Both the position numbers and the translations under genes were made by a program. This document shows positions 500 through 9,885 of a stretch of 64,000 nucleotides of DNA, one piece after another. This DNA comes from Pocillopora damicornis (lineage: Eukaryota), in the NCBI RefSeq assembly GCF_003704095.1, contig NW_020846761.1, positions 186,001-250,000 on the forward strand. The letters are read 5' to 3'. A model generated the notes under the pieces. It was given only the letters and a program-made list of their open reading frames with translations. It ran no database searches and was not told the DNA's origin. Position 1 is the stretch's first letter. Each line of letters opens with the position of its first letter.

Positions 500-1219
500 A
501 TGATGAAAGTTTCGCTGCTCGTCCTGAGTGTTCTTGTAGTGATACTTTTCTTGCACACCTTACACTACAGTGAGGCGTCCGAAATCTCTCAAGTACTCGA
601 CAGAGAAATTGGAGAATTAAGAGATGCTATTGAAAAGAGACGAAAGCGTAAGCCCTGTGGATTTACCTGGAACTTGAAGAAGTGTAAAAGCCGTGGAAAG
701 CGGAGTTATTGGGACAAGAGGGTGAGATAATTAGAGAACGCGACAATTTTAACTTCGAGTTGCTGCTTTAATCTTTCACTGGTTCGCCGCCCTTTTTTGC
801 GAGAAATATAAAACAACAAGAGAAGAAAACTCTTAACAGAATTTTCATGTGATATTTTCTTTACTGTTTAGGAATTTATGAATAATCAAATCAAAGACAA
901 TTTTTTTACACCATTCTGCAAATCGGCTCGCAAAAATGAAACTCCAACTTCCGAGATGAAAATAAAGCTTGTTACCTTTTCTCTTCCAATCACTTAAAAA
1001 TTGTGAATTCAACTTCATCAATTTAGGCCAGGTGAAACTCAGCAAGGAAAGGGTGAATGATACAACCTTAATTCTTTTATAGAGTGGAATAGCTCAGCAA
1101 TCAAACTTGTGAATTAATTATTTTTATAGAATGGAATAGCTCAGCAATCAACATCATTCAGCTCATTTGTGCCCGATGATATGGATGCCTTGTTTAACGA
1201 CTGGATAACTGAAGAGTAA
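500..1219 (+). CDS. Secreted prepropeptide A (neuropeptide/toxin/AMP-like precursor); coding exons 500-721 and 1130-1219, 103 aa
   Basis: Acceptor ttttctcattcacattccag ends at 480; ATG at 500. Hydrophobic signal peptide MMKVSLLVLSVLVVILFLHTLHYSEA, acidic propeptide, KRRKR site, KPCGFTWNLKKCKSR-GKR (amidation signal), SYWD-KR. Donor AGG|gtgaga at 721/722 (phase 0). Acceptor tttttatag at 1129 opens in-frame NGIAQQSTSFSSFVPDDMDALFNDWITEE-TAA. Unspliced read-through would end at 730. Confidence 0.8.
1075..1151 (+). repeat. ~30-bp direct repeat duplicating the splice acceptor of peptide gene A exon
   Basis: ttttatagagtggaatagctcagcaatcaa (1075-1104) and ttttatagaatggaatagctcagcaatcaa (1122-1151), one mismatch. 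Confidence 0.9.
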
Positions 1220-4200
1220 TGCGTCATGATATACCTTCACAACATTAGAAATATTCATTTAGAGCGAAATGTAGTTGTAGTAAATTGAAGCAATCATCTT
1301 GATCACATTATTTGGCATGGTGTAGGTAACCACGCCCAGTTAAAAATTGTGAACTGAATCGTGCAATGTATAAAGAAATTAGCCCTCATCACTTTTCCAT
1401 GCAATGTTTCGTAAATGTATAGGAAAAGGACATTATCATGATTCTTTCAATTATAATTTTTTCAATTATTTTATTTTATTATTGGTATATCAACTATTGT
1501 AGACCAATGATAGAACAGGAATAAAATAATGATAGAGAAAATACACGAAAGTTCCTTGTTACTTTTCGCGTTTCTATTTCGGCCAAATTCACAAATGAAT
1601 TGCAAGATTAATTTATTCGAGATAAATCTTGCTCCTTTTTTGCATTGTCGGCATATTCCTACTACGCAAGGGATGTCCAACATTGGATGCGTGCAATTGG
1701 TCTTTTCAGAAACTTGGACTAAAAATTTGGACCAGTCGAAAGCCGAAATATCAAACGTCACATCATCTCTCTAAATTTGAATCCAGAGAAGAATTGCAGC
1801 CCATCAAAATAACGGTATTGTGATCAAAACTGGAATTTTTTTTTCAAGAGTCAATTTCGTCATGAAATGTCGCAAACTGCTTTCCTTATTTTGTAAAATT
1901 GATATCCTGCCTCGGGGAGATAACATAGAGTATTATCTATTGTAGAATTTTTTTTTTGTTTCTACAGGGAACACGTTCAGCATTTGCGGTGAGTGTCAAT
2001 CACAAAATGACCTTTGTATTGACTTTTTTCGATCAAAAAAATCGCGATCAATTGTCAAGTCGTTTGAAACTAAATTCTACCCTCGAATGTCGATATTTGA
2101 CATTGCCTACAATTTGACAGACACAAATTTCAACGGAAAGCCGCATGAATGACACAATGATGAGGCTTCCTCTTCAAACCGGGTGATAATTAAAAATCTA
2201 CTCTTGGCGGTCAATGCAAACGGAGATTAAAATTCATGTCGAAAGTCTACGTTTGGCAATATGGATTCGTCCTCCAGAAACTTAGCAGAAAGCGTTACAT
2301 CGATACAAACCCTGATGTCCACAGAACATTACCTCTGCATTGAATCTCTTGCAACGATAGTTTGGACAAGACAAATTAAAAAAATGGAAAAAAATTGACG
2401 CCAGAGTTGTCCTTCAATGAGGTGGTCATATTTTTATCATAATACTCAAATAACCACACAAATTTAAATTAGTAATGAAATATTGTTGCATGGTTTCATT
2501 AGGGCCAGAGCTTTTCCATAGAGAAAATCTTCTACATCAGAGAAGTCAAATATTTCATCAGGATACGGCTTCTTTGTCACAAAGACAATTGATATCCTGC
2601 AGTTTACACTTCCACCGTAAAACAAACTATCATTTATTATTTATCACTAAGAAGAGGCTTGACATAGGTTCTTGAAGTTTGCTTAGAGTCGTATTCTTAT
2701 CATTTTAATACTCACGAGGGAAAATGAAGAAGTTAAGCACAAAATTTAATTATTTAAGACAAAAAACCAAGCCTCGTTTTCACATTTATAAATCGTCGTA
2801 AAAACCGAATGGCTTTCGAATTTATAAACCAATCAGAACTATCTGAGGTGCCTACGAGCGTGACGACGTCCTAAAATGATTGAAACAGTCGTCAGCGTTT
2901 CGCTCTGTGGAAAATATAGGTATTCTTACCCTATTAATTTCAAACAAGCTTCATTCTCAACCTATTCGACAATATAATCAGTATTTATGTTCCTCTTCAG
3001 AAACGATGAAATGTTATCCTAAAACTCCCGCACAATTTGAATGCGATTCTTCTAGAATTTTGATTGCTTAAGAACTATCAAGCTGGATAGGCTAACAACA
3101 ATCCTATATAATGCAAGTAAGTCATAATTGTTCATGTGCGCGCCGCTTTGCTGTTTATATGTGTTTATACTTCCTCGCTCTCAGAAGATAACTTCGTTAA
3201 CGCCTATAAACCTTGCATCGAAAATTGAAAAAAAAAATTTTGATTAAAAATAAAAAAGCAGAGAACATTTTTTTACAATAATTTTCATCAATTGAAAGCT
3301 GAACATGATATATGCAGGAAACACATCCGATCATAACATATGGAGGAATACATCCAGTCATAAGTTTGTTAAGAGGATAACTGATGCTCTTGTGCGAAGA
3401 AGCTGCAGAAGTCTTTACAATGACAGAGACATAAAGCTGTTAAGTACTTGTTCAGGAAGGGTGGTCGTCTTGTAAGTACAGTATGGTATCGCTACTTTTA
3501 AAAAATCTAAAAAGATGCGCGAATGCGATTATTTAGATTTTTCATACTCGCAGACGACATCCAACAACGCTTTCAAGCTATAGAAAGTCTTTGGAAAATG
3601 CGTCACGAACTTAATTTATCTCCATCTAAATTAACAGAAGGAGATCGTTGTTAAGGGATTAAACATAACTAGTGTTTTCTTAAACTATAACAATGAAAAC
3701 AAAGAATATGGGAAAAAGAATGAAAAAAGAAAACACAGACGTACGGTACATTAAAAAAGCTCTAAGAAATGTTTCCAAAAACATCGTTTAAACCTTTTCA
3801 AGCTATTTCTGAGGCATATAGGACATTTTTCTAAAACAAACGTAACGTACTTAATGAATTCTTGTTAGGTAATTTGACAATAACAGTCAATTCAAAAGCT
3901 TATTAGTCTCGTATCGCTAAAGGACCCTCAGGCCATAATACATGTAACAATCGTTGTGTTTTGAAAAGTTTTTTTCTCTTTAGCAAATGGTTATTAGTAA
4001 AGAAAATAATGGTTTGAGTCCTTTCCCACGCAAAAAAAAAAAGAAACAGCTATAAACGCTTCGCACTTTTACTAGAATATTGGATCAAGGGATTTCAGTC
4101 AAATTACATCACCATATCTTCGATGTGGCTCTGATTGATTTTCGTGCAAAAGACCGTAATATAGGCAGAGTTAGAAGTTATGAACTGTTTTTGTTATATA

Positions 4201-7686: not shown

Positions 7687-9885
7687 TAGCGAAGAACGGC
7701 AAACAACTGGGATCAAAATTGATCGCTCACCTTCAAACACTCACGAAAATATGAATAAAACTATCTATATTTAATATTCTTGAGTTAAGGCTTATAGTTA
7801 ATAACTTGTTATTTTTAAAAGCATTAAAATATTTAGAAATCAATATTAGTAGCTCAGCGTGTGTTGAATATATTCAAGAGGTGATGTGAATATTCCTCCT
7901 TTTTAGAGGAAGAAAGTATTTGTTTTTTCGAGATGAAAACAGCCGCATATAGGATTGTTCATATTCAGAAGTAACCACTAAAATGACTCGGAACTCGAGG
8001 GTATTAAACTTCATAGATATCTTAAGCACTGATGGGAATAACCTTGAAGATAACGTAGTTGTAAAAAGTTGATTGTATCAACACCATGCAACGGAATTGA
8101 AATCCTGCTTTACATATGTTCCCTAAACAACTCTACTTCCAGCCACAATTACAAATGTAGGGTCTTTTAAAAACTCCTCCCAGCATCAACGGTAGTCAGA
8201 TATCATGATGGTCGATCAGATCGTTCATCTCTCATTTGGTCTTAACAACGATATTTTTAATTTTCTTAATTGAAAAGAGGGTTGTATCTTTGATATTCGC
8301 ATTAAATTCGAGTAATGAGTCAAATAGAGTAATGTGAAACAAAAACTGCCATTAACTTCAAGGTTCCCAAGCATTTCAGCCATCGCTTTTAATCAAAGCT
8401 CGGAACGCACGGCACCATGATCCTTTTTGTTCAAATACTCCTGAAAAGAGATTTTCAAAGATGCATATCGATTTCATGTCAACAGCATCCATCGAAGAGG
8501 GCAAAGTGAATATGTTACGGAATTTTACAGATGAAATTTCTAATTCGATTTCCTTGTAAATAAACTTGAAGTAACGACAGCTGTGATCACTTAGTGGAAG
8601 TAGCCCTACACTTTCTGAAATTTAACATCTATAACGAGATTGCGAATGCATGCATTTTTATTTTAAATAAGACCTCGCTAAATGCATTTGCCTTGACAGA
8701 TTCTTGATTTCTCACGCCCTCTTTTAATCGGAAATACGAAAACGTCAACAAATTTTCATTAAAAAAAAGAATATGCAGCACGAATGCATGGGCGTTTTCA
8801 AAGACGTAACCGAATTTTCTGAGTTTGGGCAGCAAAATTCGACTCCCATTTGCCGAAGAAAAAACGCTGAGAATCTTGTATCCCGCCTTACACGGAATGC
8901 CTCGATTTTGTTGCTAGAAGGATCAACATCTGCGTGGTTCTTCAGTGCGATTGAATCTTTATTCAGGGCTGAAAATCTCTAACATACTTATTTAATTGTT
9001 TTCTACAAGTCAGGGATGACAGTAGGAAAGTGCAACATTTAAAATCACCACTGTAACATACATTTAGCTAGAAGAAAAGTGTAATAAAATTCTTTAGCGC
9101 ATGCATCCTTCATATTCCTTAATTCGAGCGTTAGTTGTGCGTTTATCCAGACACGATAAATTAAATAAGGTATCTCTCGTTTTCTATAAACTTCTTACAT
9201 GTTTCTTATTTCGAAGAAAGAACGCTGAAGTTAGAACCAAGTGTTATAATAACTTCGAGCTAAAAAAAAAAGCTCTATATTCTCTTTTCATCAGGAAACT
9301 ATTACAATAATTATTTCTTTTAGGAAGATATATATTTCATAGTTTCCAGTCACAAAGAGAGGTATTTTTCCTTCACGTTTGATGACTTTGCGGAAAATTG
9401 GAGGACATAAAAAAGAAGCCAGTCTTTCACAATAAAAGAAGTGAGTGACTTTACACCATAAGAAAAGCTCTCCTTGCAGATCGCTTATTCCTGATTCAAC
9501 TCAATGGGTAGAAGTTCTGTTTGGATATGTTTGCAAAAGGATAAGTGATTACTAATGATCAAGACCAAGATAATTGAAGGGCTATCGAGAGAAACTGAAC
9601 TGCAAAAATGCGGTCAAAATATTTACGAAACTAAATAGCAAACAGAACCAAATTAATTTTGACGTTTTGAGAGCCTCTTTCTAGAAATACAATTGATTTT
9701 TACAGTGGCCCCTGTTGGGAGAATTGTAAAAGATGCACAATTTGACTGCAAATTACTAAATAATTTTCGCTTTTGACAGTATTTTTGTTTTTCAACTGAA
9801 CCGAAATAAAACGGTCAAGGGAGGCAGAGAAAAACATGAATTCTAAGGAAACAAAAATATATATGAGGTGAAATACAAGATCTCA

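Follow-up and report, generated by a model that had tools for sequence, protein, structure and literature searches.

What do two small genes in the genome of the coral Pocillopora damicornis encode, and are they alone? Genes A and B lie in the stretch of 64,000 nucleotides analysed here (the window), which covers positions 186001-250000 of contig NW_020846761.1 (C3396) in a 234 Mb genome. The initial annotation took them for a tandem cluster of unannotated precursors of a possibly undescribed family of disulfide-ring peptides. It left open whether these act as signalling peptides, antimicrobial peptides or toxins. Is there really such a family? And, if so, which of these functions fits it best? 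We find that A and B are the last two members of a cluster of nine genes extending over 58 kb, transcribed, conserved in related species and apparently undescribed. With moderate confidence, we read the nine genes as an undescribed coral family of cyclic signalling peptides.

The tandem cluster is thus real, but it holds nine genes rather than two. Seven further members lie upstream of the window, at C3396 135324-179563, in a scan of 18 additional 10-kb stretches of the contig. A hydrophobic leader (by hydropathy), a Cys ring, basic residues after the ring and then a phase-0 GT donor are present in 9/9 genes, and a further coding exon was located for 8/9. Seven genes have one Cys ring, C-x8-C in A and C-x6-C in B, and two (G4 and G4b) have two predicted disulfides. 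The last exons add short tails without Cys, whose net charge is negative in A, G1, G2 and G3, close to zero in G3b, G4 and G4b, and positive in B. A rule combining an ATG, a hydrophobic stretch, a Cys ring at residue 30-65, at least two basic residues and a phase-0 donor was matched nine times in 244 kb, always inside the 58 kb, and not once in any of the 60 Markov resamples (65 kb each); the rule is post hoc, having been written once the genes were known. In comparisons between subfamilies, hidden Markov model (HMM) scores do not exceed 17 bits, and A and B beat 200/200 shuffles in both directions. The cluster likely arose by tandem duplication, a common descent that we infer from position and exon plan.

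Both genes of the window were found where first placed. Gene A begins with an ATG at 500, followed by the leader, an acidic pro-region, KRRKR, the peptide, G-KR, SYW and a gtgaga donor after 721. Gene B has its ATG at 6688, then KR, the peptide at 6841-6885, Gly and a phase-0 gtgaga donor after 6888. They are not unannotated, since both are modelled as 'uncharacterized protein' (LOC113680670, LOC113680709). The shared architecture proposed for them stands in part: both phase-0 gtgaga donors are real, but the intron lies 8 codons past the Gly in A and directly past it in B, where the next exon supplies the KR. Likewise, the common GKR and S(Y)W hold for gene A (G-KR, SYW), but gene B reads G-KRRKK-SW.

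The splicing of A and B rests on spliced database proteins, to which the next exons (A 1130-1219, B 7606-7686) match at 100%. Some of these spliced forms occur only in Logan (P0009 and P0045 for A; P0013 and P0052-P0054 for B), and because genomic gene calls read through the donor, they indicate that transcripts of both genes exist. According to a spliced Logan protein, gene A also has a 5' exon, some 1.5 kb upstream of the window (L004 about 7931-7988), which is joined to an acceptor at 443; the ATG follows 56 nt later. Proteins identical to A and B are labelled P. damicornis, and P. verrucosa and P. meandrina have near-identical counterparts. Eight of the nine genes are present in the databases as uncharacterized proteins, some of them mis-modelled; the G3 and G4b models labelled P. 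damicornis have no signal peptide. The ninth, G3b, is expressed though unmodelled (0/13 members of its protein cluster are named). For this gene RNA contigs were used: a 648-base GT..AG joint to the acceptor at L005:2705 is seen in 2/4 runs, which belong to two studies, and one run shows a poly(A) tail at 2877. Of the remaining runs, X18 spans the last exon of G3b without the joint and X12 has no joint, neither being given weight as absence.

How far does the family extend? Three word-seeded searches returned 1, 17 and 13 clusters, and 1.84 billion representatives, searched in full with HMMER, contained 36 matches at E<=0.001, of which 35 have the ring. P0116, a near-copy of P0115, was excluded from the ring counts. 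One HMMER match, the 980-residue repeat protein P0119, was judged spurious and dropped. The ring types stay distinct groups in this wider search; each paralogue likely kept its own ring and so probably has its own receptor. A pattern scan of metagenome contigs added eight loci, all G3b-type precursors with leader and basic site, and no second cluster member occurs on these eight contigs (1.1-8.3 kb). Matches bearing species names are from Pocillopora or Stylophora only. The distant relatives (40-55% identical in the case of gene A) presumably come from other corals, and the only named reach outside the Pocilloporidae is an Astroides orthologue of gene B assigned in PMC12225738 (papers are cited here by PMC accession, and statements on them apply to their accessible text). 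Orthologues labelled Stylophora carry closely spaced gene numbers in the same order on equal-sized contigs (SpisGene2315, 2316, 2321, 2323, 2324), and one A relative and one G3b relative are both assigned to a 121,525-base contig, so the cluster itself is probably conserved.

Within the precursors, the ring is the best-conserved part. Among close relatives (90% cluster), 1/103 sites vary in the ring versus 33/392 in signal and pro-region (Fisher p=0.004, with sites that are not independent). Against the Stylophora orthologues, the ring plus three residues is identical at 9/9 positions in G1, 9/9 in G2, 12/12 in G3 and 10/11 in B (40/41 in total); over the five genes compared, signals are identical at 109/120 positions and pro-regions at 100/135. 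Because these proteins are about 80% identical overall, the pairs were not picked by their ring. In comparisons with seven metagenome loci, the G3b core shows 6-8 synonymous and 1-2 non-synonymous differences in 13 codons, 9 of which are constrained by the search pattern. The phase-0 donor lies 8 codons past the ring in 6/6 unspliced G3b-type loci; L027, whose peptide equals that of L026, was excluded from this set, and L028 is a spliced form. Two distant G4 relatives have two ring copies in one precursor, where this genome has two single-copy genes. What does not hold as a family signature is the motif C-G-[FM]-[TS]-[WY]-x(2-4)-C-[KR]-x-x-amide with its amidation. Gly precedes the first basic site in 14/41 peptide copies, by a simple rule that misses gene B itself, and amidation is not a family trait. 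For receptor ligands one expects the mature peptide to stay constant while its carrier drifts, and the reverse is seen in venom and in many antimicrobial families. A near-invariant ring in a drifting carrier is a better fit to receptor ligands than to venom or antimicrobial peptides.

Expression in larvae points the same way, and together with the conservation pattern it favours signalling among the three functions that had been left open. Gene B (XP_027053553.1) is enriched at the aboral pole of Pocillopora planulae (log2 fold change 2.43, adjusted p 0.0067), as is its assigned orthologue in Astroides (log2 fold change 5.41, adjusted p 2e-10; both PMC12225738 Table S1). In the portion of that table examined, no gene A identifiers occur, and the signal-peptide column is blank for gene B. 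The aboral pole has neural and neurosecretory cells, short secreted proteins and a peptide-type G-protein-coupled receptor (GPCR), gene B being unnamed in the accessible main text (PMC12225738). With aboral enrichment in two distant corals, gene B is a direct candidate for the control of larval settlement, which is relevant to reef restoration.

The layout of signal, pro-region, peptide, basic site and tail fits the Nematostella cleavage rules of PMC11087051 and so supports a signalling role; X-Pro cuts near acidic residues were confirmed in that species by mass spectrometry (PMC11087051). For all steps past transcription, we infer the following. The precursors would enter the secretory pathway and lose the signal peptide, and a convertase would cut at dibasic or polybasic sites (KR or RR). 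Peptides such as that of G3b, which lack a preceding dibasic site, may be freed by the X-Pro/acidic cnidarian route instead. Carboxypeptidase trimming and closure of the disulfide ring would complete the product, with amidation only where Gly survives (A, B, G1, G3). As oxidised amides, the predicted peptides A and B would have masses of 1791.94 Da and 1675.70 Da and net charges of +6 and +3. For three other oxidised peptides the predicted monoisotopic masses are 1572.72 (G1, amide), 962.39 (G2) and 2331.10 (G3, amide), with N-termini that are less certain than in A and B. Release from secretory or neural cells might then lead to paracrine or neuropeptide-type signalling through GPCRs. A protein language model offers a lead only: it places an A relative near neuropeptide prohormones in 7 of the best 10 rows (scores 0.84-0.86), the neighbours being PDH, DH31, NPS, NPF, PrRP, CCAP and GnRH with no single family among them.

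Has such a family already been described? No family protein comes near a Pfam cut-off, PDB sequences gave 0 matches at E<=10 with a 16-sequence profile, and none of six ring motifs occurs in the literature searched. That literature, which left subscription journals and most supplements (including the Nematostella list of 33 precursors) out of scope, yielded no paper on the coral family. The accessible parts of PMC11269664, PMC13311285, PMC13581030 and PMC12496222 hold nothing on these genes. A weak lead linking a G3b relative to DUF4543/C17orf67 (best atlas score 0.83) was rejected. The survey of scleractinian neuropeptide families that includes Pocillopora and Stylophora lists linear amides only, and the words cyclic and cysteine are absent from its accessible text (PMC7523074). 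Single-copy precursors have been published for cnidarian RWamide and RNamide (PMC7523074), and presumed cyclic neuropeptides with a different motif for jellyfish (PMC6909153), so neither trait alone is new for Cnidaria. The jellyfish peptide, medusozoan CXXXMCWFRamide, has one predicted cystine ring of the C-x4-C size of G0, G1 and G2, and shares the tripeptide CWF with G2. In contrast to the coral peptides it is multi-copy in scyphozoan precursors and amidated, with WFR outside the ring, and it was not found in Octocorallia (PMC6909153, accessible text). WFR-amide follows the second Cys in 0/41 coral peptide copies, and CXXXMCWFRamide has no sequence match to the cluster.

Homology to bilaterian families, considered undemonstrated from the outset, remains so, and likeness to CCAP and vasopressin/oxytocin fails in sequence tests; homology to either is not shown. 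CCAP and the conoCAPs (PFCNAFTGCamide, PMC4422128; conoCAP-a/b/c, PMC5100318) have the C-x5-C ring seen in 13/13 distant gene-A relatives, but not in gene A (x8). Most of these relatives also share the tripeptide [GA]FT with CCAP, but shifted by one place. Unlike CCAP, A-type rings (C[GA][FN][TS]WxC) have no Asn after the first Cys or Gly before the second, and they contain Trp. CCAP also has a C-terminal amide, whereas only 1/13 short-ring A relatives has Gly before the basic site. The Pfam CCAP family (PF11105) aligned with one A relative from signal to peptide at E=0.12 and 12.7 bits against a cut-off of 27, which is 1/24 family proteins scanned. For the vasopressin/oxytocin type (conopressin-G, CFIRNCPKGamide; PMC5100318), the C-x4-C ring with aromatic or aliphatic residues is also found in G0 and G2. 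Pro follows the second Cys in G0, and C-P-R-G follows the ring in the Stylophora B orthologue. The vasopressin/oxytocin nonapeptide sits directly after the signal peptide; the C-x4-C peptides of G0, G1 and G2 instead follow a pro-region and lack the P-x-G-amide end. Nor does any coral precursor contain neurophysin, the tails being short, Cys-free and free of Pfam matches; a genome-wide search for neurophysin (PF00184) was also empty but, having no positive control, is given no weight. Somatostatin, allatostatin-C and urotensin II resemble the coral family in their single ring, in many cases with the end at or close to a free Cys, and Trp-Lys or Trp-Arg lies within the ring of G3b and several A relatives. 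These peptides lie at the extreme C-terminus of the precursor, whereas the coral peptides are followed by a tail (with the further coding exon in eight genes), and there is no Pfam match. The receptor class of the three has been described as bilaterian-specific (PMC11087051).

Several observations count against a family of signalling peptides. Diverging Cys peptides encoded in tandem clusters are a typical feature of defence and venom genes, and several of the peptides here, two of which contain Trp, are cationic like antimicrobial peptides. Gene A departs from the conservation pattern: against Stylophora its ring is identical at 8/13 positions, below signal (20/26) and pro-region (20/23), and the sole variable ring site among close relatives is also in gene A. 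In six distant G3b relatives the ring is 89% identical, the signal 31% and the pro-region 33%, but these relatives were found through ring words or the pattern, which inflates ring conservation. Many cross-subfamily HMM pairs fail to beat shuffles, and sequence does not prove the common descent of the nine genes. The signalling role of the nine predicted peptides is read from the genes, their conservation and the pole-level expression of B. Finally, the aboral pole also has gland-mucous cells, and antimicrobial or adhesive roles have been suggested for its small Cys proteins (PMC12225738).

Could the products be defence peptides? They might be antimicrobial or microbiome-shaping peptides released into mucus, with acidic flanks masking a cationic core until cleavage, and gene A would be the best candidate. 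The predicted core charges of A (+6), G1 (+4) and B (+3), two of them with Trp, the acidic flanks, and the faster divergence and charge gain of gene A are consistent with this, but the cores of G2, G4b and G0 reach only about +1 and the distant A-type core has about 9 residues. Coral antimicrobial peptides such as damicornin, AmAMP1 and digitiferin are, like the cluster products, secreted and contain Cys, and AmAMP1 has been described as a possible neuropeptide (PMC12496222). They are, however, ShK-type, with several disulfides, and far longer (digitiferin has 81 residues and 10 Cys; PMC12496222), whereas the cluster peptides have 2 or 4 Cys and no Pfam ShK match. With near-invariant rings in drifting carriers also against it, we consider a defence function unlikely for the family, although a dual signalling and antimicrobial role is possible. 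If the peptides were antimicrobial instead, they would form a new class alongside the few known ShK-type ones.

Venom families usually conserve the signal and vary the mature part. In 8/9 genes the ring is not the more variable part (for G0 and G4b only 1 and 2 sequences were compared), which argues against venom or deterrent peptides of cnidocytes or gland cells that, in the manner of one-disulfide conopeptides, would target ion channels or hormone receptors of prey. No Pfam toxin family comes near its cut-off, and the larval aboral pole would hardly be a site of prey capture. A venom role is improbable, even with the tandem cluster, the one-ring scaffolds of contryphans, conopressins and conoCAPs (PMC5100318) and the neuropeptide-to-toxin recruitment documented in Nematostella (PMC13311285) in its favour. 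It is highly improbable that the products serve larval adhesion or cross-link matrix after secretion at the attachment pole, for although gene B is aborally enriched and adhesion has been proposed for small Cys-rich aboral proteins (PMC12225738), the larval data concern one of nine genes, and a glue would not be expected to need convertase and amidation sites, single small rings or near-invariant, paralogue-specific cores.

If the nine genes encode signalling peptides, what might their receptors be? Most cnidarian peptide GPCRs are orphans. An orphan anthozoan branch of them clusters with the vasopressin/oxytocin, GnRH, achatin and NPS/CCAP receptors of bilaterians (PMC11087051), and it is conceivable, if rather unlikely, that the cluster provides the missing ligands of that branch. 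In that case vasopressin- and CCAP-type peptides would have their cnidarian counterparts in the C-x4-C and C-x5-C rings, disulfide-ring peptide signalling would predate the cnidarian-bilaterian split, and the coral peptide set may steer larval settlement. Independently of this, a one-ring neuropeptide family is not described for Hexacorallia in the literature examined, as far as its accessible text goes. For receptor screens, the cluster offers nine natural peptides that can be synthesized, 8-20 residues long and of predicted mass. The family may have been missed because screens seek repeated amidated copies and because the signal peptide is lost or hidden in several gene models. The features of the nine genes are collected in Table 1.

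Table 1. Features of the nine clustered genes. Positions for A and B are those of the window; positions for G0 to G4 are coding spans on contig C3396. Peptides and their processing are predicted.
Gene	Feature	Position	Strand	Remarks
A	First coding exon	444..721	+	Acceptor at 443; coding sequence from 500
A	Signal peptide	about 500-577	+	Boundary set by hand
A	Acidic pro-region	578-634	+	
A	KRRKR site	635-649	+	
A	Predicted mature peptide KPCGFTWNLKKCKSR	650-694	+	Ring C-x8-C; processing predicted
A	G-KR	695-703	+	
A	Phase-0 intron, gtgaga...ttatag	722..1129	+	Spliced proteins P0009, P0040, P0045
A	Last coding exon	1130..1219	+	Acidic C-terminal peptide (net -6); first AATAAA at 1520
B	Upstream exon	5491..5602	+	TATAAA at 5491; donor after 5602; P0051
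B	Signal-bearing exon	6666..6888	+	Coding sequence from 6688; signal about 6688-6756 (set by hand), pro-region, KR, peptide, Gly
B	Predicted mature peptide GNNLCGMSYYGCRKN + Gly	6841..6888	+	Ring C-x6-C; processing predicted
B	Phase-0 intron, gtgaga...aaacag	6889..7605	+	Spliced proteins P0013, P0048-P0054
B	Last exon	7606..7759	+	KRRKK site, basic C-terminal peptide; stop at 7686; AATAAA at 7754
G0	PICLFARCP	135324-135521	+	First exon only; ring C-x4-C
G1	GWRVCHSGKC	142136-144641	+	Ring C-x4-C
G2	PPCWFGRC	147747-149436	+	Ring C-x4-C
G3	FPRVCGYHSWVVC-G	162966-163890	-	Ring C-x7-C
G3b	FPRACGIHGWKKC	168401-169261	+	Ring C-x7-C
G4b		172484-172916	+	C-x-C-x6-CC
G4		178074-179563	-	C-x-C-x6-CC

The peptide of gene A is likely a derived, more cationic (+6) and faster-changing form. 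The 8-residue ring is limited to A, its Stylophora orthologue and P0017. Because 13/13 distant relatives read PC[GA][FN][TS]WxC with the basic run within one residue, the 8-residue ring and KSR-amide tail of A look derived. Having no Gly, 12/13 of these relatives would end at or beside a free Cys. The gene A lineage, which lengthened its ring, gained charge and diverges faster, may have changed function. The A relatives P0017, P0105, P0106 and P0111 carry FW-G-KR after the basic run and before the intron, which may give a second short Wamide peptide; gene A (window 695-721) and its Stylophora orthologue have YW-D-KR at this place, which would not be amidated. A tandem duplication of about 45 bases at window 1064-1157 takes in the last-exon acceptor and first codons of gene A, just 5' of the used acceptor at 1129, and could supply an alternative splice site. 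The Logan-derived P0045 carries an unrelated N-terminal region, presumably death-domain-like, fused to the 5' and coding exons of gene A, and is likely from a chimeric contig.

In gene B, an in-frame ATG at 5496 yields a 43-residue extension in the RefSeq model that buries the signal peptide. The upstream part (5491-5602; 6666-6687) forms an open frame continuous with that of the signal peptide in both the Pocillopora and the Stylophora model, with 20/25 residues identical. Its ATG overlaps the TATAAA, and the exon is either translated or conserved untranslated region.

The pro-region of G2 (L007:1247-1441) ends in R-G-D directly before the ring; Stylophora has K-G-E there, and the motif is absent in one close variant. 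In the P. meandrina model P0068, the first exon of G0 (L009:8824-9021) is joined to a tail near-identical to the last exon of G1 (L008:8022-8141). Only one copy of a G1-type last exon was found here, so that P0068 is a fused model or two first exons share one last exon. A G1-like leader at L008:9542-9598 that stops after 19 codons, beside an assembly gap, is a possible pseudogene fragment and was left out of the gene count. Assembly gaps at C3396 157.6-161.0 kb could hide more members. Searches of the same genome with A, B and G3b returned the query locus only; known neighbours were missed as well, so these searches are weak for divergent paralogues, and more members may lie elsewhere in the genome. 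One extra match (E=8.5) had no signal or ring context around it. At L005:3067-3166 lies a short dispersed repeat with very high depth in four runs, and the window seems to contain related sequence again near 16190-16300.

The cluster is flanked upstream by a ligand-gated ion channel gene of the neurotransmitter-gated type (PF02931 and PF02932) and downstream by a COPB2-like coatomer gene. Exons of this coatomer WD gene (PF04053), presumably COPB2 by its motif, and a forkhead gene (PF00250, E=1.9e-38) that we take to be FoxL2-like lie near each other on the minus strand, at window about 13000-25000 and 54694-55590. COPB2 and FOXL2 also adjoin each other in vertebrates, so the coatomer-forkhead pair would represent ancient microsynteny.

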